64,000 nt of DNA from Naegleria gruberi (taxonomy: Eukaryota): the NCBI GenBank assembly GCA_000004985.1, contig GG738904.1; one strand, given 5' to 3'. A program made the position numbers and the translations under genes. Below the pieces are notes generated by a model, which was not told the origin of the DNA, did not search any database, and saw nothing but the letters and a program-made list of their open reading frames with translations. Shown here one piece after another: positions 5,560-45,400 of the stretch (position 1 is its first letter; each line of letters starts with the position of its first letter).

Positions 5560-6282
5560 ATGCTTCCATCATCATCGATAAGAAAATTTGTTCCGATCTG
5601 TTTATTGTTGATCATTAGTATTAATTTATTAATTACATCATTGAATGGACATAAAATCGGAGACGCCATTCCAATGTTAAAAAAGATACAATTTAATGAG
5701 AAGAGAACTGAATGGAGTGAGGTGCCATATGGAGATGCTCCAAGATATGGAATTCCAAAAAAGATCACAATCACTGGTGTTGCTGCTATTTTAGAAGCCT
5801 TCCTTGAAACACCAAAGTCTCCAGCTGGTACCGATAAATATTATGAGGAATTAATTGCTCAATCAAAGGATGATTTAAAGCTTTCATTTGCTTTCCATCA
5901 CCCTAATTTTGAAACTCCTTGGATCACACTCTTTTCAAAGGGTACTCCCGATGAGGTTACTAGCAAGAACAGTTATCACTTTTTGAAGCAAATTGATTTT
6001 ATGTTCCTTTATCATGGAGATACTATTTTGGAAATTAAACACTCTTTGGAATGTATGTATTTGTAGTATTTTCATAATTGATTAATTGATTAATTAGATT
6101 ATGATGAAGAAGATGAAGCCTCTAACCGTCCATCAACAATCAATAACGATATTGTTGTTAATTATTATTGGAAAGAAGTTGTGGAAAAGGATACATCTGC
6201 TGGATTAACATTCCTCTATGTGATTTCATTCATTTTTGGATCTATTATTATGATTACAGGAGTTAGCCACATTGGATTCTAA
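5560..6282 (+). CDS. Hypothetical secreted / type-I membrane protein with signal peptide and C-terminal TM segment; 2 exons (5560..6052, 6098..6282)
   Basis: N-terminal signal peptide (LLLIISINLLITSLNG). A 45-nt intron GTATGTATTTG...TTAATTAG (6053..6097) joins the ORF in phase 1 to a downstream open frame ending in the hydrophobic segment GLTFLYVISFIFGSIIMITGV. No recognisable domain. Confidence 0.45.
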
Positions 6283-6344
6283 TAAATTCGCCACATTCAT
6301 CATTGTATAAATTAGAAATAGTTTTAAGGTTTATTTATCAGTAT

Positions 6345-9167
6345 TTACAAAGTGAGGACAACAGCATCAATTTCCTTACAGAATGTGTGGTAATCAATAT
6401 CGCCTCTTTCATCTTCGTAATGCTTTTGTAACACTCTGAGTTCCTTGTCATTCAAGTGGAACTTTAAGAAATCGAGAATAGAAGCAAATTGAGTTTTGGT
6501 AACACGAAGTTTTCTCAGCTTGTCATAGTCTTGGAAGTAGGCAGTTAAAATTTGTTGCATAACAGCAGCCTTAGTGGCAACCTTTTTAAGGATTGCATTC
6601 AATTCATTACCATCTACTTCGTTTGAGATTTCTGGAATATGAGATTTAAGAGGATAGCTTGGACGAGCTTGGAATGATTCTGCAGTCTTTGTTGGGAATT
6701 TTTCAAGTCTATTTTCAACAAAAGCTCTATCAACTTCTTCACAAAGTGATGTATAACTTATCAAATCTGGGTGAGCATCAACCTTGTAATAATCTTCCAA
6801 CAATTGAATTTCTTGTTCTGAAAGATTCAATTTAGCCATGCTAAGAGCAGTTCTAAACTTTGCCTTTGGAACGACATTGTGTCTCAATTTATCAAAATCA
6901 GCAAAGAATTCTTTCAATCTGGTTCTACTCTTAACAATATCAGACGTGGCCTTATAGATAACATTTGATATCTCTGTAGGAATTTGTTTTGGCACATCAG
7001 GGTTAATAAAGTTTTGAGAAACGGCCAACTCTAATTCCTTTACATAGACAGATTGATGGGTTCTGTCAACACGTTCATTCTTATCGACATCTTGAATAAA
7101 CTTGAAATAGTTTACATAGCCTGAAGTTGGTTCAAAATAGGCATTTTGAAGTAACCTGTAGTCTTCTTGGGTGAGGAAATTAAAAAGCTTATCAAGACAC
7201 TGTATAAACTGTGTTTCGCTTATTTTTCCTCTTCTTAACTTATCAAAATCTTCGAAATTTACTTTCATAGCAATACCTCTTGTCTTCACTGCATATTGAA
7301 GTTTGCCAAGTAACTCATCGAGCTTGTCCTCCATTGGTGTGTATGCTTTTTGTGGACCACGTTTTTGCATGGAATTTAAAGTAAAATCGAGAGGAGAAAC
7401 CAATTCTTTGGTTGGAACCTTTTCTAAATTCTTTTCAGTAATTACACTGTTAATTGTGTCACAAAACTTTCTATAGTTAACAAATCCTTTCTTCGTTGGA
7501 CTCTTAAATTCTGAAATGAGTTGTTCGTTCTCCTTATCTGTCATATCAATACCTCCCATATTTAAAGCACTTCTGAATTGTTTCTCTGTAATTTCATGAC
7601 TTCTAAGAGGGTCAAAATCTCTCATAAACTCTTCCAATCTTATTCTATTAACAAGGGACTTGAACGAAATATCCTCAAGTAATTCATCTAGCTCCTTTTC
7701 TCCCTTTGGACCTCTCTCCTTCTTTGGGAGATTACCAATAAGTTTAACATCATAGTCACGAGTATTAAAGTTACTATTTTGCAAAATTTCATCAACATCC
7801 TCGAGGAACATTTTGTAGTTTACATCTCCCTTACCAAGATCGTCATATTTTTCTTCAAGAATAGTATATTCATCTTGAGTTAAATTGATACCAGACATGT
7901 GAAGGGCTCTCTCGAATCTGGCCCTTGTAACGTGATCGGTGGAGTAGGTACCCTTCTTTGTTTTATCAAAATCTTGGAAGAATGGTTTCATGAAAACTCT
8001 TCTGTTGCTTACAATCTCACTGACCTTGTTAATAACATCGTTACATTTTTCTTCCTTTTCGCTCTCTAAATTCTTTCTATTAAGCTTGACAATATTGTTT
8101 TGTTGATGGAATTTCTTAGTTGGAAATTTTTCCAATCCCTTATCATTGAAAACAGAGTAAACATTATTCAAGAACTCTTGATATGATACTCTGGACTCGG
8201 AGTGATGATCTTCAGTTCTGTACTTTTCAGCCAACATGTCGAGCTGTGTTTGATTGAAAGCCATTTTGTGGAACTTTATGGCACCTAGTGTGGACATGAA
8301 TTGAGCTTTAGTGATAAAGCCAGTTCTTAATCTGTCAAAATCACGGAAAGATTCATCCAATTTAATTCTATATTTGATCAAAGCCTTTTTGATTTCCTTT
8401 TCAATTTCATCGACTTGTTCCTCAATTGAAGGGGTTGCTCTTTCGAATCTATAATCAGGATAGTCATCTATTTTAATTTCATTTTCAATTTCTTCATGGA
8501 ATCGGAGATAATTGATATCCCCTTTTTCATCTACATATCTATCAAGAATCAAGTGCAATTCTTCAGCATTCAGGTTTCTGAAAGGAATACATTGCAAAAA
8601 TTGAGATCTAGTAACAGCTCCATGATTAAGAGGATCAAAGTCCTTGAAGTAATTCTTAATAATATGGCCTTGAGTTTTGGCTTCCCATCTCAATTTTTCG
8701 TATAGAATATTTAATTCTTCAGTGGCTGAGAGTTGTGGTTTCTGTGATTTTAATAATTCTGTAGAGTTGAGAGTTTCCAATTTAGGATCTTTTTCCATTC
8801 CTTTGAGGGTAAATACTATTAAATGGTGTTATTAAAGATGTACATGTTATTGGATCAACATACCTTTATCGATTTCAGTAGCAAATTGAATATAATTCAC
8901 CTTATTGACGCTCGAATCAATAAACCTCGAAACAAGTTTATCAAAATCAGCATCCTTTAATTCCATTCCGAAAGAACTCAAACATCTTCTAAATTGAGGG
9001 ATTGATACAAATCCTGATCTCAATTTATCAAAGTCAATAAAAAACTCATTAATTCTTAGTCTTTTCTGCAAACACAATGTCCTGATAGTGTCCAACAATC
9101 CCTCTACACTAACATTCTTGCCTGATGAGAGTAACATTTTTTTTACTTTACGTAAATTAAAATTCAA
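6345..9167 (-). CDS. EF-hand-like tandem-repeat protein, about 920 aa, with 9 repeats of ~95 aa each carrying a degenerate Ca-binding loop D[FY]D.L..G.[IV][TS]..QF; 2 exons (9167..8847, 8798..6345)
   Basis: The repeats show recurring DFDKLR.G.V...QF ... VNY.KF..DVD motifs. ORFs 8847..9167 and 6345..8798 are joined by a 48-nt intron on the minus strand (GTATGTTG...TTTAATAG, plus coordinates 8799..8846). Confidence 0.7.
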
Positions 9168-9170
9168 AAC

Positions 9171-9182
9171 TTTTGGCGGGAA
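9171..9182 (+). promoter_or_regulatory. E2F-like site TTTTGGCGGGAA immediately upstream of the EF-hand repeat gene start (9167, minus strand)
   Basis: A canonical E2F consensus (TTTSGCGS). It is a GC-rich island in a >80% AT context. Confidence 0.4.
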
Positions 9183-9252
9183 CGAGTAATACAGTTATCG
9201 TTACGTTGATATCAAACCCCATCAACCTAATTTTAGTAATTTAAATTTGTTA

Positions 9253-9538
9253 TTATTGCTTTGGTGAGGTGAGAATGGATGAAATTCGATACATGTAATA
9301 ATAAAAAGCCATTATTCCTAGAACAAATAAGATAATTATCACTGTGGTCTTGTTCCGAAGTCCAATAGTTAATTAGTAATTTTGTTCAACTTGTACCTAC
9401 AGCAATATTCAACCATTTATCATAAGCTTCCGAAGATGATGAATCAGCATCTGCATGTTTTTCTCTGGCTAATGGTGCTGATTTGGAAGAAGAATCTTTC
9501 AATGATGTACTAGTATTTCGTCTATTTAATTCTTGCAT
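9253..9538 (-). CDS. Possible small tail-anchored membrane protein (~78 aa): Ser-rich N-terminus, a 51-nt intron, and a C-terminal TM helix VIIILFVLGIMAFYYYMY
   Basis: ATG at 9538 (minus strand) gives MQELNRRNTSTS...WLNIA, followed by GTAGGT...GAACAAG and then TTVIIILFVLGIMAFYYYMYRISSILTSPKQ*. It is below the ORF-track size cut-off and lies very close to the stop of the neighbouring kinase gene. Speculative. Confidence 0.2.
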
Positions 9539-9558
9539 TTTTTTACAATATTTTAAAT

Positions 9559-10362
9559 TCAATATCTAGAATCCTGCTCTGATAACAGTGTGTAGAGGAA
9601 TTTAAAGTCCTTTTCATTCTTCAATTTGTTAAAATCAGAAATAATACCATCGCCATTAGGTCCATCATTGGTTGCAACTCTATGTCTTGCCAATTCTTCA
9701 GTATTTCCAGTTCCGATATGTCTCTTGACAACTCTTTCCATTGCCTTAATTCAATATGAGATTTGAGATTGACATTAAATTACCTACCTCTTCCTTAGTT
9801 TGAGTATGGATATAAATCAAAATGTCAAACAATGGTGTGACATTTGGCCAAGTTGCCAAATAATTTCCTTCCACAATTATAATTGATTGATTGGCTTCTA
9901 CATGAATATCATCTTCAATGGGATCTCCAACACCATGATCAAAGGAAGGAGCACTCACTTTCTGATTAGGTGAATGTTTAATATTTTCCAATAAGTTTTT
10001 AAAAGCCAAATCATTAAAAGTAAATGGAGCTCCTCTATTAAATTAAATATTAATTATTAAATTAATAATTAAATAATTAATATTTACCTTCTACTGTGAG
10101 CATGTTTAGGATCTTCCATCATATCCAATTCCCTCCTATAATAATGAAATCCATCCATAGGAACGACCTGACAATTAATCTTCAACTCTTCAGTCAAATA
10201 CTTTTTCATATCCTGACAAACACTTGTCTTCCCTGAACCAGGTGTTCCAAAAATTCCAATTAATAATCGTTGTTTAATTTCCGATGGTTTTTGTTGTGAA
10301 AATTCCACCAATTGATGATCTTTGTTGATTTGATCCAAGAGTCCTTTAACCTTTTGCTCCAT
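9559..10362 (-). CDS. P-loop kinase of the phosphoribulokinase/uridine kinase family (YFH7-like); about 3 exons
   Basis: Walker A GIFGTPGSGKTSV, then VVPMDGFHYYR, RRGAPFTFND, SFDHGVGDP and IIIVEGNYL. ORFs 10084..10362, 9746..10009 and 9559..9741 join through minus-strand introns of ~53 and ~43 nt (GTAAAT...TTTAATAG and GTAGGTAATT...ATTAAG). Confidence 0.65.
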
Positions 10363-10431
10363 TTTTCTTTATTGACAGCGTATTATTGAAAATTAACAAT
10401 AAGCAAAAACAAAGACAATCCTGATTTTGTC

Positions 10432-10460
10432 TTGGCGCCAATTTTGTTTTTCGCGCCAAA
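10432..10460 (+). promoter_or_regulatory. Tandem palindromic E2F-like sites TTGGCGCCAA and TTTTCGCGCCAAA in the bidirectional promoter between the P-loop kinase (minus strand) and the Sfi1-like gene (plus strand)
   Basis: Two CGCGCC/GGCGCC cores 16 nt apart, within 70-130 nt of both start codons. Confidence 0.45.
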
Positions 10461-10589
10461 TTGTTACATTTATTTTTCAACTCTAAAAACAAATGCACAA
10501 CATCTAGGATCTTTATCATCAAATTAATATTTTAAAGAATTCAGTGATTGTATTGAGGACAACTAATTAATATTATTCAGAGCATAACA

Positions 10590-13500
10590 ATGTCATCATA
10601 TTGTGCAATCAACAAAGAACGAAAAAAACTCAACCATCCATCACTTATTCGGTGGATAAAGGAAGAAAAGCGAATCTCATCAAAAAAACAAAATCAACAA
10701 CAATTTGTGGAGGAAATTGCTGATGAGGACGGTGTTTGCAGGAAATGCTTTCCTGATGGAATGGTAAATGAATCAGTTCAACAACAACAAGAAGAGGATG
10801 ATGATAATCGTAAAGTTAGATTTACAGAACACAATTCAGAGGATGCCCACAATACTCTTTCGGATTTGACAAACTCTGAAGCAGTAAACGCAAAGACAGA
10901 GCTTCACAAGAAAGTAATTTTCATGCACCATCAACAAAACAGGAGAAATGTTATTGATAAAGCTGAACAAACATCACTAGTGAGTGAAGATGAATTTGGA
11001 AAATTGTCTGATGAAAATTTGTTTGGAAAGGTACACTATCTTCTGTCCTCTATCAAATCTAATAGAGTGGAAACCAATGTGACGCCAACCAAAATTACAA
11101 ACATGACCCTAGACGATGATGAGCCAAGACCTAGTAATTTAAATATTTCCCCTTCTTCCTTATTCTGTGGATATCCTTCCAATGCAGACGATCAGGCACC
11201 ATTACAAAACACTAGCCGAGAGACACCATCTTTTGAAAATGAATTATTTCATAACTATTCACTCCCCAAACAAACAGTATCACCCAATATTTCTAACTTA
11301 ACTTTGGCAGATGCCTCTAGGCAAATTCAATCCATGTACAATCACATTACATCTGTATACGGATCAGAACCATTAAATCAAAGACAAATAATATTCGAGA
11401 AAACACTAAATATTGGAATAACCAGTAACAATGAAAATGATACGGTTCATGACTTGAACTACATTAAGGATAAAGTAAAAAAATTACGAAGCAAAAGACT
11501 TCAAGAAATCAAAAGAAATTTGGAATTTGAAAGGGTAGAATTAATGAAAAATCCAAAAATAGGAGATCTTAAAAAGCGAATTAGTGACCTTAAAAGAAAA
11601 ATAGAAAAAGAATACGAGAAGGATGAACTTTTCAGAAAACAAAGACTGAAGGAAACAAATAGACTAAAACTTGTGAAGAATACTCCAAAAGCTGAAGAGA
11701 AGCTTAAAATGTTTTTAAATGCCCTTAATGCTAATTATTCCAATACTTGCTATCAAGTAACTATTTATGAGGGAGAAATATCGACCTGTCTGGCCAAACT
11801 GTTTTTAATTTATTTAAAAATTGAGAAAGAAATACAAAAATCTAGGGATATATTGCTGACAAAATTGAATGATGAAATGTTGGAAAACTGTGCTAGGAAT
11901 ACTTTTTACGCCTTCAAAAACTTTACTAAAAAGCAACAAGATTTGAGGCAACAACAACAAAGATTTGACAACTACATAACTCATAGAAGAAAAGTAAGCC
12001 TCTTTGCTAAATGGAAAGAAAGTACAAAATCTTCTGTTACAGAGAAGGAAAAGGATGAGGTAGCTATGATTCATTACTACAATAACCTCCAACGTAAGGC
12101 TTTCAATAGTATAGCTTTCGTCTTGAATAGTATGATTCTTAAACGGTGTGCAAAGGAGCTTTCTTTTATGTGGAGGGATAGGCAGATTCTTGGAAAGGGG
12201 TTCTTTGGTTGGAGGCATCAATCTGAAAAAACAAAGTATTTGAAACAAGGTCTCATGAGGTTTGCTGTTTCAGATTCCTTTGATGAGTTGGACAGGTTCA
12301 AATCTGAATATGAGATTGAGTCCTACATGTCTTACAAAATACGTCTCAATTTCAGAACCAAAATAACCAAGCACTTGATTCAACTTTATAGAGAAAAGAA
12401 ATCCCTAGTTTCTAAATTCGAGCACACTCCAAAACTTAGATACATTGAATACTTTACCAAAAAACCAATTGATCTGAGTACTATTTACAAAATTGAAGAA
12501 TACGATCAAAGATTTAAGCACTTTAACTATTTGAAAAAGCACGACAGCAGACCAGTTTGGGATGGTCCACCAGAGGAGCAGTACGAACCACCTCTCTACT
12601 CAAAATCTTCTTTTCAAAAAGCATCAATTCCAAACCTTACTGAACAAGTATATGATATCAGACTCAAAAAGAAAATATTTCAACAGTGGAGTGAAAAAGC
12701 GTGTGATAAGATACTTAAAAACAGAGCGGACCAATTCTATAGTGACGTGACAAAGCGAAAGGTCTTGTACGTACTAAGAGAAAATAGAGATGATATTTAC
12801 GAAAAGAGTCTGCAAATACAGGACAATTCAAATGCTACAATGATTGTTAAATACTTCAACAAGTGGAGAGAAACCACAGAACTAGTCAGCCATGAAAAAG
12901 ATAGTATTGCCTCAGAATACTACAATATAACATTAGCAAGAAAGGCATTCCAAGCTTTGAAAACAACTTGTCTTGTAGATTACAATCCTCATTTGAATGA
13001 TCTATGTAAGCAATGGCTTGTCAAATCAAAGGAGCGTTATTTCAAACGTTGGAAGTTGATGTTGTTCTTGAGAAAAAGTGAAGAAAAGTTTGAACTGGCA
13101 GTTGCAGAACAATATCAAATGACTTTAAAGTTCAAACTGTTAACAGCTTGGAGAGAAAAAGCAAAAAAGAGACAACTGTTAAGAAAAGTTCTCACTGACG
13201 GAGCCAACAGAATGAAGGCCAAAACCACTGTTTTAGAAAATAAGAAATCTTTAGCCAAATATGTTCTTAAACAATTGAAAAAGAATAAGGAAGTCAAGAT
13301 CTCTAGGAAAAATCAATACTTCATGTTTATCAAATCTAAGAAATTTTATGATGATGCTCTCAAGCAAAAATTCTTCCAGTTGTGGAAAATCAAACAAGCC
13401 ATTGGAGAAGAACAAAAGAAATTGGAACAGTCACAGGAGGAGAAAGAAAAGACAGCTATTGCACTCAATCACTATAATCAAGTGATAAAGAAGAAAATAA

Positions 13501-14393
13501 TCAAATCATGGAGAGAGTATACCCTTGAAACAAACTTTGTTGATATATTTATTTTGAGAAAGGCTTTTGAAAATTGGAGAATATTCGCTGCTAAATCAAC
13601 CGAGGAACCAAAGCACAAATTTAAAAAAAACATTTTTCAAAGATGGAAAGCTGCACTCAGAGAAAAGAATGAAATGAGCTCGTTAAATAGTCTTGCTGAA
13701 AGGTTCCACGAAAGAAAACTGGCTCAGAAATCAATGGGGTCCATCAAGGAATACATTGTCCAACAAAGAATAGAACATGTTCAATTGATAAGAGCTAATC
13801 AATATTACAAAGAATCTCTGATGAGGAAAGTTTTAATAGGACTATTAATCAATGTAAATACCATACGAGATAAGAGGCGAAAGAGAGAAAAGGCTGACTT
13901 GTTCTATCACAAGAAATTAGTTCAATCATCACTAGAATCACCACTCTCGCTCGATAGATTCTTGAATGCGAGACCAAACTCACCATTCTTTTTTGCCAAG
14001 ACTGTGAATATTGTTTATTACAAGCTTCTCATTAAGGGAATCGATTCTTGGACATTTTTTGTAAAGAAGGAAAAGGAGAAACGACTTATGCTAGCCAAGG
14101 CAGTCCACGCCAATGCATCAAATCTAGTAGCAAAGTGCTTTAATTTGTGGCGAATCAAATCAAAACTACAATCTCACAAACATCCCAAATTTATAACCAA
14201 ATCCAATATCACTAATTCAAAAATTGTTCAGAGCAATATATCACCAGCCCTTAGTACAAACATTGTTTCTCCAATTCTTCATTCAAGTTTGACACCACAG
14301 GAGAGGAAAATTCTCATTCATCATCACCACTATCTGATTGCCACTGATTCTGATGATGATGATATTGTAGATTATCTAAATATTATTGAATAA
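10590..14393 (+). CDS. Long Lys/Glu-rich coiled-coil protein with repeated F/L-x-x-W-K/R motifs resembling Sfi1 centrin-binding repeats; candidate basal-body/centrosome protein
   Basis: A single 1267-aa ORF. At least 12 W-centred repeats spaced ~20-40 aa apart (FAKWKES, SFMWRDR, FQQWSEK, FNKWRET, FKRWKLM, LTAWREK, FQLWKIK, IKSWREY, FENWRIF, FQRWKAA, FNLWRIK). The N-terminus is acidic and Gln-rich. Confidence 0.55.
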   Translation: MSSYCAINKERKKLNHPSLIRWIKEEKRISSKKQNQQQFVEEIADEDGVCRKCFPDGMVNESVQQQQEEDDDNRKVRFTEHNSEDAHNTLSDLTNSEAVNAKTELHKKVIFMHHQQNRRNVIDKAEQTSLVSEDEFGKLSDENLFGKVHYLLSSIKSNRVETNVTPTKITNMTLDDDEPRPSNLNISPSSLFCGYPSNADDQAPLQNTSRETPSFENELFHNYSLPKQTVSPNISNLTLADASRQIQSMYNHITSVYGSEPLNQRQIIFEKTLNIGITSNNENDTVHDLNYIKDKVKKLRSKRLQEIKRNLEFERVELMKNPKIGDLKKRISDLKRKIEKEYEKDELFRKQRLKETNRLKLVKNTPKAEEKLKMFLNALNANYSNTCYQVTIYEGEISTCLAKLFLIYLKIEKEIQKSRDILLTKLNDEMLENCARNTFYAFKNFTKKQQDLRQQQQRFDNYITHRRKVSLFAKWKESTKSSVTEKEKDEVAMIHYYNNLQRKAFNSIAFVLNSMILKRCAKELSFMWRDRQILGKGFFGWRHQSEKTKYLKQGLMRFAVSDSFDELDRFKSEYEIESYMSYKIRLNFRTKITKHLIQLYREKKSLVSKFEHTPKLRYIEYFTKKPIDLSTIYKIEEYDQRFKHFNYLKKHDSRPVWDGPPEEQYEPPLYSKSSFQKASIPNLTEQVYDIRLKKKIFQQWSEKACDKILKNRADQFYSDVTKRKVLYVLRENRDDIYEKSLQIQDNSNATMIVKYFNKWRETTELVSHEKDSIASEYYNITLARKAFQALKTTCLVDYNPHLNDLCKQWLVKSKERYFKRWKLMLFLRKSEEKFELAVAEQYQMTLKFKLLTAWREKAKKRQLLRKVLTDGANRMKAKTTVLENKKSLAKYVLKQLKKNKEVKISRKNQYFMFIKSKKFYDDALKQKFFQLWKIKQAIGEEQKKLEQSQEEKEKTAIALNHYNQVIKKKIIKSWREYTLETNFVDIFILRKAFENWRIFAAKSTEEPKHKFKKNIFQRWKAALREKNEMSSLNSLAERFHERKLAQKSMGSIKEYIVQQRIEHVQLIRANQYYKESLMRKVLIGLLINVNTIRDKRRKREKADLFYHKKLVQSSLESPLSLDRFLNARPNSPFFFAKTVNIVYYKLLIKGIDSWTFFVKKEKEKRLMLAKAVHANASNLVAKCFNLWRIKSKLQSHKHPKFITKSNITNSKIVQSNISPALSTNIVSPILHSSLTPQERKILIHHHHYLIATDSDDDDIVDYLNIIE

Positions 14394-14423
14394 ATTTTCA
14401 TTCTCACCACTAACTGTTTATTA

Positions 14424-14435
14424 TTTGGCGCCAAA
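14424..14435 (+). promoter_or_regulatory. Perfect palindromic E2F-like site TTTGGCGCCAAA, 37 nt upstream of the RSPH9 ATG
   Basis: A 12-nt perfect palindrome identical to the classical overlapping E2F site. Confidence 0.45.
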
Positions 14436-14471: not shown

Positions 14472-15416
14472 ATGGAACAAAACGAACTTGCCTTTCATTC
14501 TCAATTTCTCTCATTAAACGGATATTGTTTGAATCTGGAAGAGAAGACTGCCCTTCAAAGCAGTTTGCTTATTCTCCAAGAAAATAACCATTTCCATACT
14601 GTACAATTCTGGGGAAAGATTCAAGGTGTAGAACAAGATTATCATATTGCCGAAGGATATCGTGGATCAATGATGGATGAAAGAATAAGATTTTACTCGA
14701 TCGATGGAGGAATTAGTTGGAATCAAATGACTTTTGACTTGACTGAATATGAGGTTTCCTGCATAGAATCAATCCGAACACTGTTCATGGGTATCCCAAC
14801 TCACACCTATTTATTCCCAAAACCAAAGGAAGAGTCTTCCGAAGAAGTCACTGACAAACAAGAAGTTCCAGTTGAGCCAAAGGAACCTAAGGATGATGAT
14901 GAGGATAATGAAGACAAAAATGATGAAAAAGCTGATGATGAAAAGAAGACAAAACCAAAGGAAGAGTTATTCACTATAACTGAAGAAAAGAGATTAACAT
15001 GGGCTGTAAAAATGATTGACCAAGACGGAAGTGTTGTACCAAGGGGTGCTTTTGTTGTCAAGAAGGATGACGAGCAGGTAATTGTAAAAAATCAAACATT
15101 CTTTGGAATGGATAAGTATCAAGCATCAAAGCTCTATAACTTTGTCCACCTCAGAACACCAATCCACAAAACATGGGAAAATATAGTTGCTCAACAATAT
15201 ATTGACAAGTCTCTTGATTTTGCTGATCCAGTTGATGATGACATACCATACGGTTGTTGGAGCGTCCAATATGAGGAAATTATTAATACTGTAGTTGGAA
15301 GAAGTCTTTTGTGGCCTGGCTACGTCTTTTATCACAAAATTCAAACCCCATTCTATGGAGGTTTCTATATTGGAAATGGTTTGAAGAATGTTGACCTTTG
15401 TTTTATGTTACCTTAG
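14472..15416 (+). CDS. RSPH9: Radial spoke head protein 9 homolog (axonemal)
   Basis: The N-terminal region ...HFHTVQFWGKIQGVEQDYHIAEGY matches the RSPH9 block (VLFWGRILGL.ADYYIAQG). Length and architecture fit, with an acidic low-complexity insert of about 60 aa. Confidence 0.75.
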   Translation: MEQNELAFHSQFLSLNGYCLNLEEKTALQSSLLILQENNHFHTVQFWGKIQGVEQDYHIAEGYRGSMMDERIRFYSIDGGISWNQMTFDLTEYEVSCIESIRTLFMGIPTHTYLFPKPKEESSEEVTDKQEVPVEPKEPKDDDEDNEDKNDEKADDEKKTKPKEELFTITEEKRLTWAVKMIDQDGSVVPRGAFVVKKDDEQVIVKNQTFFGMDKYQASKLYNFVHLRTPIHKTWENIVAQQYIDKSLDFADPVDDDIPYGCWSVQYEEIINTVVGRSLLWPGYVFYHKIQTPFYGGFYIGNGLKNVDLCFMLP

Positions 15417-28369: not shown

Positions 28370-28381
28370 TTTTTGGCGGAG
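28370..28381 (+). promoter_or_regulatory. E2F-like site TTTTTGGCGGAG about 125 nt upstream of the SAM-domain gene
   Basis: It matches the TTTSGCGS core and is one of only a few GC-rich motifs in AT-rich intergenic DNA here. Confidence 0.3.
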
Positions 28382-28506: not shown

Positions 28507-28867
28507 ATGACCAGCTCCATGGATGAATTTGAAAAACTTGTGAAAGCTTCCCCTAATGTTAGTATGTGGTCACACAGCAACGTGTGTGTCTTTTTATCTT
28601 CGTATCCTGACTTGGTTTCAAAGAAGGTTATAAAAAGTAGGTTATTTTCCTTTTCTGTCCAACCTAAACACATGTTCACACTTAAACTTTAACTGAATAG
28701 AAATTAAACAAGAAGGATGGTCTGGAATTGATTTATTGGAAAGAGGTTCTATAGAATACATGACAAAATTCTTAAAATTGTCAACAAGTGATGCCAGTTC
28801 ATTCCTCTTAGCCATTGATAAACTTCAAAAGAGAGCTGAAATGGAAAAACCAACTTGTGATGAATAA
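28507..28867 (+). CDS. Small SAM (sterile alpha motif)-domain protein, about 99 aa; 2 exons (28507..28636, 28701..28867)
   Basis: W..S.V..FL..YPDLV..K...IKQEGWSGIDLLERGSIEYMTKFLKLSTSDASSFLLAIDKLQ is SAM-like. A 64-nt intron GTAGGTTATT...CTGAATAG joins the exons in phase 1. The stop codon lies 1 nt from the stop of the convergent deformylase gene. Confidence 0.45.
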
Positions 28868-42441: not shown

Positions 42442-45400
42442 ATGGAACATTTACTCGTGTTGACTACTGTTGAAAGAATTGGTGATTCTCTTCCAAGTAC
42501 ACCTTCATCACAAAGAAGAAAGGGTTTCAATTTGAAGGGTTATATTAAAACACTCAATGAATTGATTGTTTTGCCAAATATTGACTTACACAAAGTGGTT
42601 CAACCTCTCGTTGATCTCTACGATAATGTCTCTAAAGTAAGTAGTTTTTCAGAAGGCTGTAGTGGTTTATTAACGCTACATGGTTTTTTTGTTGCAAATT
42701 TCATTATCATCATGTTTGGCGCCACAATTTTGTATCTTCCAATGACACAATTTTTCAACAATAACAACAACAAAACAAAATGATGATCAACTAATAATAT
42801 CATCATCATGCTGGTTATTATGTTGATATTTATCTAACAAAAACAAATTATCATATATAGACCACAATCAATGCTACATTAAAACCTTCTGAGAAAAGAA
42901 CAAAATTAGAGTTGATCAACAAATCAAAACTCATCATTCTCAATCTATTATCGGATTATATAAATTTTGCCATCGAAAATAAGGAAGTAAGTATGAATTA
43001 TTGTGAGGTTCATCAATATGAATTTGTTATTATTATTATTAATAATATATTTAATAGCTTGTTTTGCCAAATCATCACTTGAACAATTTGTTCTGTCAAT
43101 TTGATAATGATGATCTCTTGTTGGAAGAGAGACGTCAAGAACAAGATGAAGAAGAAGATGAAGATTTAGTTGCACTTGTTAAGGAACAATCAAAGAATGC
43201 TCATCAACCATCACAATCAGCTTCAACAATTACAGAAAGTACAAATGAAGGTAACGAATCTCCAAGTATTAAAAATGGATCTCTCAATCAGATCAGTGAT
43301 TTCGAATATGGGCATGAAAGAGGTAGATCACCAAGTGGCTTGGGAGCATCTCTTGATTATTTAAATGCTTACAAGCAAAGAAAACAAAAGAAATCTTCAT
43401 CAAAATCACAAAGAAACTTTAATGTAAAGAGAAGTGCTGCCACTTTTACTCAACCAAAAGAATTGGACGAAGCAACAGCTCTCAACATTATTCAATTAGT
43501 TTCCACTAGATTATTATTACAACATGATATGTTCTATGATGCCACACAAGAAGAAATCCAAAAAACAGCAGTTAATAATTATCTTGAACAACAAATTTCC
43601 TATAGATGTATGGAGATACTATTCAAAATAAGTGTTTGTAAACCAGATACTGTTTTCAAGACTATTGTTGGTGATTCATTACCTACATCACTTAATAATA
43701 ACTGTATGGATATCAGTTTTAATACTGATCTTCAATCTGACAAACTTCCTTTCTCTTCCTCTCTTTCACATTTCAAACTGATCGAATATGTAAATTGGAC
43801 AGTTGGTAATTTAGAAAAACTCTTAAAGGCAGTCAATGAAAACATGAAAGGTTTTACCAAATATTTGGAAGTCTTAACACCTCCTTTAAGATTAGCTATA
43901 TGGAACTTTATTACAAACTATAATAATGAATTTGTTGATATCATTAAGAATCCAAATGCTTCAATTGTTAATACAGCTAGAGAAACATTTGATAATATTT
44001 ATAAACAAACAGGAAAGAAACAAAAAAACAAGACATGGCCAGCACTTGCCACTTTATGCGTTTTGACTGCAGATGATCTTCTAAAGTGTGTAAAGGCAGG
44101 TAATGGTAAAAAGTTTGGTGGCAGTGAAAATATGACAACATTTATTCACAAAGATCTCTTAAAAGCAATGGAAGATAAGGATAAGTCTCTTATTTTACCT
44201 CCATTGATTGACATTTATAGAGCTGTATCATATGCACCATCAGATGTAGAAACAGCCTTTGCTGTTCTTTCTCTTTTGGTGGAAGAAAAATTCCTTTCCA
44301 TTTTTGTACCAGAACCAACAACAGGAAAAGTTTCTAAATGCTATAGTCCAGAAGAGTTGAATGAACTCGAAATGTGGACATTTTATGTAACAACACTTTA
44401 TAGAAGAAGCCCAGAAAAATGCAAAAAACAACTAATGATACCAATAATGGCAGATGGTACTTTAGAGCAAAAACAAACAGTTGCCAAAGTACTTCTTTTC
44501 CTTCTTACTGATAGATCTTCTCAATTTACCTACAATAGAAAGTTAGAAGTAGACTTTAAAGTACTTGCTTCATCTCTTCGTGAATTTTTCATTTCGACTA
44601 CAGATCAATTCAAAGGTAAAGCAAGAGAAACTGGTGATGATAATACTCCAACATTAGCACCAAGTGCATCCTTTAGAACACCAAAGAAAGGCTTTGCAGC
44701 TCTTTTAAGAGAGAAAGTAGGTGGTAAGGACAGTAGTAATTCTCCTACTGGATTGGGATCATTCGCAGGTCAACCAAACTTTAAAATGTTTGATACTGTT
44801 AACACAATTCTTCACGTTTTTTGTGCTGATCCAAGGTTTTTCCTTACAAAGTCAAACGAATCCGATCAAAATATCAATAATTTTGCCTATTTGGCTGACT
44901 TCTTTGTGCTAAATTCTGACCCAATTGTACAAGATCAAATAACTAGACTTTTCCAAAAGCTTTTCTTAGAACAATATATTAAGAACTGGGGAGATGATTT
45001 ATTTGTTGGATTCAGTACTATCTCAACAAGAGTTTTGTCAAGACTATCACCTGCTCTTTTCCTTCTTAATGAATTGGAACAATTGCAAGCAACAAAGACC
45101 TTACTTTTCCTTTTGAGAAACATTACCTATTGTGCTAAGAAATTCTATATTGCTAACAGAGACACTTATTTACTTTTGGAACACATTAGAACTAACCCTG
45201 ACAGAATTAATACTCTTGAAGTTTTATGTAGTAACTTATTGGTATGCCTTTGCTCAACTGATAAGGAGATTTGGCAGTCTACTACAAGATGTTTGAGAGA
45301 TGTTTGTGACCAAATTGAAATTTTGAATAATCACAACATTAAGAAGTTGAATTACAATTTTTACAGACAATTGGCAAGCATTGACTTGAATGGTAAATTT

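Follow-up and report, generated by a model that had tools for sequence, protein, structure and literature searches.

In vertebrate multiciliated cells, E2F4 or E2F5 acts with MCIDAS/GEMC1 to drive centriole amplification (PMC12183034). During regeneration of the oral apparatus in Stentor coeruleus, E2F, DP, and Rb are induced early, predicted targets carrying TTT[GC][GC]CGC peak together with the centriole genes, and RNA interference against E2F impairs completion (Sood et al. 2022, PMC9371601). A 2025 review notes that Naegleria lacks FOXJ1, RFX, and XAP5, gives the regulator there as unknown, and concludes that other factors "must regulate many cilia genes" (PMC12183034). Here we describe GC-cored words of the E2F type, fitting the consensus TTTSSCGC, that stand upstream of the start codons of flagellar genes in a 64,000-nucleotide (nt) stretch of the Naegleria gruberi genome (contig GG738904.1; the whole stretch is referred to below as the window). 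Naegleria is a classic model for the de novo assembly of basal bodies and flagella, and its flagellar genes are switched on within minutes. We put at a little under 60% the probability that these words are conserved, promoter-proximal E2F-type cis-elements in front of axonemal genes, most likely read by a factor of the E2F family. What would be new here is the position of E2F-type sites on the axonemal genes themselves, in a heterolobosean; a literature search found no paper linking E2F motifs to Naegleria flagellar genes.

Canonical E2F/DP sites at TATA-less promoters, such as those of adenovirus E2, DHFR (TTTCGCGCCAAA), and E2F1, contain the same word, TTTSSCGC, often as an overlapping inverted pair. 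They are promoter-proximal and work in either orientation. The Naegleria sites, which also occur in either orientation, lie 21 to 48 nt (RSPH9 and CFAP115) and 70 to 158 nt (bidirectional promoter) upstream of the ATG and are probably promoter-proximal as well, and N. gruberi, too, encodes E2F, DP, and RB with the RRxYD contact residues. The targets differ: canonical E2F targets are replication and G1/S genes, whereas those predicted in Naegleria are axonemal and basal-body genes, in an organism whose centrioles and flagella are absent while it cycles. E2F4/E2F5-DP1 with MCIDAS/GEMC1 provides a precedent for the use of E2F in nondividing cells for massive de novo formation of basal bodies and cilia, and Naegleria differentiation is also de novo and postproliferative. 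The direct targets of vertebrate E2F4/5, however, are mainly centriole-biogenesis genes together with FOXJ1/RFX, which then turn on the axonemal genes; the Naegleria sites, unlike these, lie directly on axonemal genes (those for RSPH9, CFAP115, and outer-arm dynein beta). Among the site-bearing genes there is one basal-body candidate only, an Sfi1-like gene, and the best-supported ones are axonemal. To our knowledge, the geminin-family coactivators MCIDAS and GEMC1 are confined to animals; no search for them was made in Naegleria. Stentor resembles Naegleria as a protist that deploys an E2F module in building a ciliary organelle, but it is a ciliate, evolutionarily very distant from Heterolobosea, and the study reported only 13 predicted targets, including cyclin and kinase genes, and showed no site conservation at axonemal genes. 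The RFX X-box/FOXJ1 modules of animals and choanoflagellates follow the same logic, that of a short promoter-proximal motif common to many cilium genes and marking a ciliogenesis regulon, but the X-box (GTNRCC-N-RGYAAC) is unrelated in motif and in factor family to the Naegleria element.

The window contains four E2F-consensus sites across three promoters inside 5.3 kb, all of which match TTTSSCGC on one strand or the other (Table 1). Such words are scarce in this DNA. The window is 33% GC and depleted in CpG (718 observed versus 1758 expected; ratio, 0.41), which makes CG-cored words rarer still, and the hexamer SSCGSS is present at only 8 sites in the whole 64 kb. TTSSCGSS gave 9 strand-matches, corresponding to 5 sites, where 1.57 strand-matches (<1 site) were expected, and four of the five sites fall in the three promoters. 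TTSGCGCSAA was observed 3 times, against 0.03 expected, and at least three copies were reached in 0 of 100 dinucleotide shuffles. The double site TTGGCGCCAA+TTTCGCGCCAAA lies 70 to 98 nt from the kinase ATG and 130 to 158 nt from that of the Sfi1-like gene, TTGGCGCCAA itself occupying the positions 70 to 79 nt and 149 to 158 nt away, respectively; TTTGGCGCCAAA is located within a 78-nt spacer. A first-pass annotation of the window, made from the letters alone, had reported GC-cored motifs close to the start codons of an EF-hand repeat gene, the Sfi1-like gene with its divergent kinase, and RSPH9, with weaker copies near 28372 and in an NF1 intron. Checking the sequence, we located four strong and two weak copies as claimed. 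Its figure of more than 80% AT for intergenic DNA was too high, since the intergenic spacers of the three promoters measured 70 to 74% AT.

The sites were then traced through the orthologous loci of N. fowleri, N. lovaniensis, Willaertia magna, and Acrasis kona and through environmental or metagenome heterolobosean contigs (L009, L010, and L011). An E2F-like site is found upstream of RSPH9 at -37 to -48 in five heterolobosean taxa and upstream of CFAP115, as the EF-hand repeat gene proved to be (see below), at -21 to -47 in six. TTSSCGS is matched by 10 of the 11 non-Acrasis ortholog sites, the N. fowleri RSPH9 site (TCTGGCGCC) having one mismatch, and each conserved site, read in one of its orientations, departs from TTTSSCGC at no more than one position. 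The promoter flanks of these orthologs are unalignable, AT-rich DNA with a mean column identity of 42 to 51%. In N. lovaniensis, no SSCGSS other than that of the RSPH9 site occurs in the 21 kb of locus L003, and no TTSSCGS other than that of the CFAP115 site occurs in the 22.9 kb of locus L005. Orthologs share the half-site word and its spacing from the ATG downstream, but they do not share palindromy. At a background of 1.7e-4 sites/nt, a 40-nt window has a chance of 0.007 of containing a site, and a site was found in 10 of 11 promoters, for which the binomial tail is ~1e-21 if independence is assumed. The argument for conservation is based on the retention of the sites amid unalignable flanks, and not on this independence-based p-value. 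Judged by that retention in the orthologous RSPH9 and CFAP115 promoters, the sites appear to be under purifying selection, and, as far as conservation goes, the suggestion in the first-pass annotation of a conserved co-regulation signal is borne out in five to six heterolobosean taxa.

These comparisons bear on two explanations that dispense with a binding protein of any particular kind. In the first, the words would have no function and would be chance GC-rich words or a compositional artifact in AT-rich spacers. One or two lone copies in the window are indeed within chance expectation: the weak copy TTTTTGGCGGAG (28372) is a single such site and compatible with chance, and ~0.8 sites like TTTGGCGCCAC (42715), in an intron of the NF1-like gene, are expected by chance per 64 kb, so that it, too, is compatible with chance. 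Both copies are present in the sequence, as the first-pass annotation said; a regulatory role would be putative for either. Chance does not account for the excess of TTSGCGCSAA, for the improbability of the ortholog matches under assumed independence, or for a position kept in five to six taxa despite unalignable flanks and different neighboring genes, and we regard the absence of function as effectively refuted by conservation. The second explanation, in which the palindromes would act by their structure, as a DNA cruciform or as an RNA hairpin in a 5' untranslated region or terminator, is similarly very improbable. TTGGCGCCAA and TTTGGCGCCAAA are perfect palindromes of 10 to 12 nt, and TTTGGCGCCAAA, at 14424, begins only 31 nt past the Sfi1-like stop codon; the orthologous sites, however, are asymmetric half-sites (TTGGCGGG, TTTTCCCGCC, and TTGCCGCCAAA), as is the N. 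gruberi CFAP115 site, and no pairing-preserving compensatory changes were seen in the orthologs. The hairpin reading was rejected on the ground that palindromy is not conserved among orthologs. As a side observation, the first intron of the NF1-like gene appears unusually long (~230 nt), and TTTGGCGCCAC within it may be an intronic regulatory site, an alternative promoter, or a chance occurrence.

Specificity for cilia genes was assessed on all 115 definable gene starts in the window and ten loci (~220 kb), a sample that includes orthologs. Scored over the 150 nt preceding the ATG, TTSSCGS was present in 11 of the 15 promoters of cilia genes and in 5 of the 100 others (Fisher p = 7e-9). The five nonciliary positives are the kinase that shares its promoter with the Sfi1-like gene, two genes beside a Willaertia long terminal repeat (LTR) retrotransposon, a prefoldin gene, and the small gene at 28507. 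A weaker word of related form, TTTTCTCCCGCC, stands ~94 nt upstream of one more axonemal gene, which encodes the outer-arm dynein beta heavy chain of Willaertia (E = 1e-284 against the ODA beta chain of Chlamydomonas); the Willaertia dynein locus contains only two SSCGSS sites in 21 kb, this one and the RSPH9 site. The APC2 and MAD1-like genes and one histone gene in the sampled loci have no upstream site. We weighed these counts against the explanation that the words are ordinary G1/S-type E2F sites on proliferation-linked genes and that sampling few promoters has produced the flagellar tie by accident. In other eukaryotes, many genes have E2F sites close to their starts, the kinase with the double site is nonciliary, and nonciliary matches occur at the SAM gene, the prefoldin gene, and the NF1 intron. 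This explanation nevertheless seems improbable to us: RSPH9, CFAP115, and outer-arm dynein are axonemal proteins with no role in acentriolar, aflagellate cycling amoebae, the difference between cilia-gene and other promoters is large, and the APC2, MAD1-like, and histone genes just mentioned are without the site.

In the same survey, two identical TATTGGCGGGAAAAG sites of W. magna (locus L007) were considered as gene promoters and rejected, because they are the LTRs of a retrotransposon. The element lies just upstream of CFAP115 (L007, 5600 to 9300), with a gag-like open reading frame (ORF) at 5734 to 7122 and a reverse transcriptase/pol ORF at 6983 to 8920; its two LTRs have the E2F-like word at 5631 and 9195.

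By the terms of the first-pass annotation, its reading would fail in an organism that lacks E2F/DP, which N. gruberi does not. It encodes one each of an E2F (NgruE2F), a DP (NgruDP), an atypical DEL (NgruDEL), and an RB (NgruRB) (Medina et al. 2016 supplement, PMC4862756). The RRxYD DNA-contact motif is intact in NgruE2F (KRRIYDITNVLEGIGLIEK), in NgruDP (RRRVYDALNVL), and in NgruDEL, which has two such domains (PMC4862756 supplement). The recognition helices of the three proteins are nearly identical to those of animals, which gives good grounds to expect a DNA specificity identical to that of the animal E2F family. TTTCGCGCCAAA equals the overlapping pair of E2F sites classically known from the DHFR promoter of mammals, and TTCCCGCCAAAA is the consensus of the E2F7/8 type. 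The description of the sites in the first-pass annotation as textbook E2F/DP sites is correct insofar as they match TTTSSCGC exactly, whereas E2F as their reader is a well-motivated inference. A CCAAT-box reading and an Sp1-like (GGGCGG) reading were discarded, neither word being conserved among the orthologous sites.

A conserved flagellar cis-element may also be real and yet be read by some other, possibly lineage-specific protein with a preference for a TGGCG(C/G) core in A/T flanks, E2F being uninvolved. The element is tied to E2F by sequence match alone, it would have to be active in nondividing, starved cells, which is atypical for an activator E2F, and the conserved core varies (GGCGCC, GGCGGG, GCCGCC, and GGCGCA). 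Heterolobosean transcription factors are, moreover, poorly charted, and the 2025 review names no regulator of the cilia genes (PMC12183034). Against such a reader, the conserved sites all fit TTTSSCGC with at most one mismatch, two of the sites equal textbook high-affinity E2F sites, and E2F, DP, and DEL proteins with near-animal helices can be expected to bind them irrespective of any other factor. We consider an unrelated reader unlikely on balance, although it is an alternative to be taken seriously. For a reader of the E2F family, methylation could form a further layer of control on the CG-cored sites, since E2F binding is sensitive to CpG methylation in animals; N. gruberi has cytosine methylation and Tet-like enzymes.

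Table 1. Sites and genes of the N. gruberi window (positions in window coordinates) and ortholog sites in other heteroloboseans (positions relative to the ATG)
Feature	Source	Position	Strand	Sequence	Remarks
E2F-type site, CFAP115 promoter	N. gruberi window	9171-9182	-	TTTTGGCGGGAA	TTCCCGCCAAAA on CFAP115 sense strand; 34-45 nt upstream of ATG 9137
E2F-type palindromic site	N. gruberi window	10432-10441	none	TTGGCGCCAA	Bidirectional kinase/Sfi1-like promoter
Second E2F-type site	N. gruberi window	10449-10460	none	TTTCGCGCCAAA	18 bp center to center from TTGGCGCCAA
E2F-type palindromic site, RSPH9 promoter	N. gruberi window	14424-14435	none	TTTGGCGCCAAA	37-48 nt upstream of RSPH9 ATG 14472; -48 on sense strand
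Weak copy	N. gruberi window	28370-28381	+	TTTTTGGCGGAG	~130 nt upstream of small two-exon gene, ATG 28507
Strong-looking copy	N. gruberi window	42715-42725	+	TTTGGCGCCAC	Putative first intron (~42637-42870) of NF1-like gene
CFAP115 ortholog, EF-hand repeat protein	N. gruberi window	6345-9137	-		Exon ~8850-9137, short intron, 817-aa main ORF 6345-8798
PRK/uridine-kinase-family P-loop kinase, yeast YFH7-like	N. gruberi window	9559-10362	-		3 exons (three-frame translation); divergent from Sfi1-like gene
Sfi1-like repeat protein (candidate), NAEGRDRAFT_81485	N. gruberi window	10590-14393	+		1267 aa
RSPH9 (radial spoke head protein 9), NAEGRDRAFT_73387	N. gruberi window	14472-15416	+		314 aa, single exon; Pfam Radial_spoke
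RSPH9 site	N. fowleri	about -45		TCTGGCGCCCAAA	
RSPH9 site	N. lovaniensis	about -40		ACCCGCCAATTTT	
RSPH9 site	Willaertia	-48		TTTTGCCGCCAT	
RSPH9 site	Environmental contig L009	-47		GTTGGCGCCATTTT	
CFAP115 site	N. lovaniensis			TTACCGCCAAATTT	Also written GTTACCGCCAAATTT
CFAP115 site	N. fowleri			TTGCCGCCAAATTTT	Also written ATTGCCGCCAAATTTT
CFAP115 site	Willaertia			TTTTCCCGCCGTT	
CFAP115 site	Metagenome contig L010			TTTTTGGCGGC	
CFAP115 site	Metagenome contig L011			TTGCGCCAAAAC	

The genes beside the sites had been named in the first-pass annotation as flagellar or basal-body genes, and this description largely held: the EF-hand gene is CFAP115, RSPH9 was confirmed, and the Sfi1-like identity is plausible from the repeats. 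The RSPH9 ORF matches an N. gruberi predicted protein, and the Sfi1-like ORF is an exact match to NAEGRDRAFT_81485. The EF-hand gene product aligns with the Tetrahymena CFAP115 chains of the axoneme cryo-electron microscopy entries 8g3d and 8g2z (E = 1.7e-95) and has a Pfam EF-hand_11 match; CFAP115 is a ciliary (axonemal) doublet-microtubule inner protein, resolved in the Tetrahymena axoneme structures. The true start of the gene is ATG 9137, in an exon beginning MLLSSGKN..., and orthologs of 915 to 931 amino acids (aa) share the MLLS... start. In the public N. gruberi model P0040 (1059 aa), kinase exons 1 and 2 are spliced into the middle of the first CFAP115 exon, the conserved MLLS... start is dropped, and the motif-bearing spacer becomes an intron. 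This kinase-CFAP115 fusion is very likely a misprediction, because the 915- to 931-aa orthologs have no kinase domain. The RSPH9 ORF and N. gruberi XP_002671588 agree at every residue (100%) over 73% of the ORF's length, and orthologs were found in N. fowleri (70%), N. lovaniensis, Willaertia magna, and Acrasis kona. The public RSPH9 model has 229 aa, as against 314 aa for the ORF, and one ENA protein equals the ORF in length.

The Sfi1-like protein contains 10 [FLIVM]xxW[KR] repeats, against 0.8 expected in shuffles, and 11 to 13 of its 16 tryptophans fall within A..Y/H...L..K.F..W[KR] repeats, a pattern typical of the centrin-binding repeats of Sfi1. The repeat spacings are 22, 23, 33, 42, 62, 66, and 78 residues (about 23 to 33 in the Sfi1 type). 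The protein has no match in Pfam, Sfi1 included, or in the PDB, and a metagenome scan with it found no relatives. On the repeat pattern, which is the sole basis, it is plausibly an Sfi1-like, candidate centrin-binding basal-body protein. A 1240-aa gene beside RSPH9 in N. fowleri was considered as its ortholog and rejected for want of similarity; the GGGCGGC word of that gene is not conserved in N. lovaniensis. The divergent kinase gave weak Pfam PRK and P-loop matches and a match to PDB 2ga8 (yeast YFH7; E = 7e-20), and a flagellar role is not evident for it. The remaining ~25 genes of the window are nonciliary or without annotation, and a comparison of 17 unannotated window ORFs with all PDB chains, including axoneme structures, carried out in search of motif-less cilia genes, gave no match.

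The picture of a flagellar gene neighborhood was not supported. The grouping of CFAP115, RSPH9, and the Sfi1-like candidate is specific to N. gruberi and not syntenic in its relatives, and the kinase among them is not evidently flagellar. CFAP115 and RSPH9 occupy separate contigs, each among other neighbors, in N. fowleri, N. lovaniensis, and Willaertia; upstream of RSPH9 the relatives have a DUF501 gene, and upstream of CFAP115 they have a deformylase gene and an 84-aa gene. Compared with N. fowleri and N. lovaniensis, N. gruberi has ~19 kb lying between CFAP115 and the deformylase gene. The motif, whose neighbors differ in this way among relatives, therefore belongs to each gene and not to the cluster. 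We estimate that a few runs of three cilia genes among four neighbors would be expected genome-wide by chance if 4 to 5% of genes are ciliary.

Several observations on these loci are recorded here in their own right. The interposed ~19 kb (window, 9.1 to 28.9 kb, compared with L005 and L006) contains the kinase, Sfi1-like, RSPH9, DEAD-helicase, DUF4116, and other genes, and the weak site at 28372 is near its far breakpoint. On the downstream side, synteny is retained (o5560, CLC, PDI, and a mitochondrial carrier). Contig L010 has a tandem E2F-like pair, TTTGGGCGGGAATTTTTTTGGCGGGTTT, at the contig start (30 to 60), and contig L009 has an E2F-like word, TTTGGGCGCCAATTTTG, at the start of the DUF501 gene adjoining RSPH9 (205 to 222).

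The mechanism that we propose starts from an E2F-type element (TTTSSCGC), in either orientation and often palindromic, which in Naegleria and related amoebae lies 20 to 50 nt upstream of the ATG of RSPH9 and CFAP115, and probably also of outer-arm dynein beta; in N. gruberi, it is present as well in the promoter common to the kinase and the Sfi1-like basal-body candidate. Its reader would most likely be the single E2F with DP, or else the atypical two-domain DEL. Bound beside the transcription start, such a factor would couple otherwise silent genes to the amoeba-to-flagellate program, with its de novo construction of basal bodies and flagella. This coupling could take the form of a differentiation-specific activating complex, toward which we lean slightly by analogy with E2F4/5 plus MCIDAS and with Stentor; the release of a repressive E2F/DEL or RB-type complex is almost equally possible. 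The match to the consensus, the rarity, position, and conservation of the sites, and their enrichment at the sampled cilia genes are observations; which protein binds them, in which direction it regulates, and how far this extends through the flagellar regulon are inferred. The stronger proposition, that E2F/DP or DEL is the direct switch of the Naegleria flagellar and basal-body regulon through the sites 20 to 50 nt before axonemal ATGs, is put forward tentatively, and we would give it somewhat less than an even chance. In the part of Data S2 of the preprint by Kennard et al. that covers these genes, MCM4, APC6, Aurora, and GCP3 are transiently up by ~2 to 3 log2 at 40 min of differentiation; this rise, an incidental hint that some genes of the cell-cycle type pulse in differentiating cells, would fit a pulse of E2F-type activity.

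A number of points weigh against reading the words as E2F-family elements of flagellar genes. Flagellar genes are off in cycling amoebae and on in starved, nondividing cells. This logic is the opposite of that of a classical activator E2F, so that a cofactor or a derepression step must be assumed. The word may also be present on S-phase genes (MCM, PCNA, and RNR), in which case flagellar specificity would be unaccounted for. The sample of promoters is small and represents three to five cilia gene families, and orthologous promoters are not independent, so that the p-values overstate the support. The Sfi1-like protein is assigned by its repeat pattern only, and the double site in its promoter is closer to the nonciliary kinase than to the Sfi1-like gene. 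Finally, the promoter shared by RSPH9 and GAS8 in Acrasis kona, 90 nt long, contains only a degenerate TTACCGCTCAAATTT and no clean site, and two acrasid-like GAS8 contigs are also without the site. The element may be decaying in Acrasis, a suggestion we make because no flagellate stage is known there. The Acrasis genes are arranged head to head (L008, 8522 to 10947), RSPH9 facing the axonemal gene GAS8/DRC4 across the 90-nt spacer. A scan of metagenomes with GAS8 from Acrasis yielded nothing beyond acrasid-like contigs, which lack the site, and GC-rich organisms.

If the words are elements of the kind proposed, E2F becomes a testable candidate for the flagellar-gene switch of Naegleria, with both the cis-element and the proteins named and the test a cheap one. 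The motif could aid the prediction of flagellar-regulon genes in Naegleria genomes, including that of the pathogen N. fowleri, and could aid the design of differentiation-specific promoters. The finding also bears on the age of the link between E2F and the centriole or cilium, the evidence for which is to date firm in vertebrate multiciliated cells and suggestive in Stentor. If E2F is indeed the direct switch, control by E2F over the de novo assembly of centrioles and cilia would be either ancestral to eukaryotes or repeatedly recruited from the cell cycle machinery.

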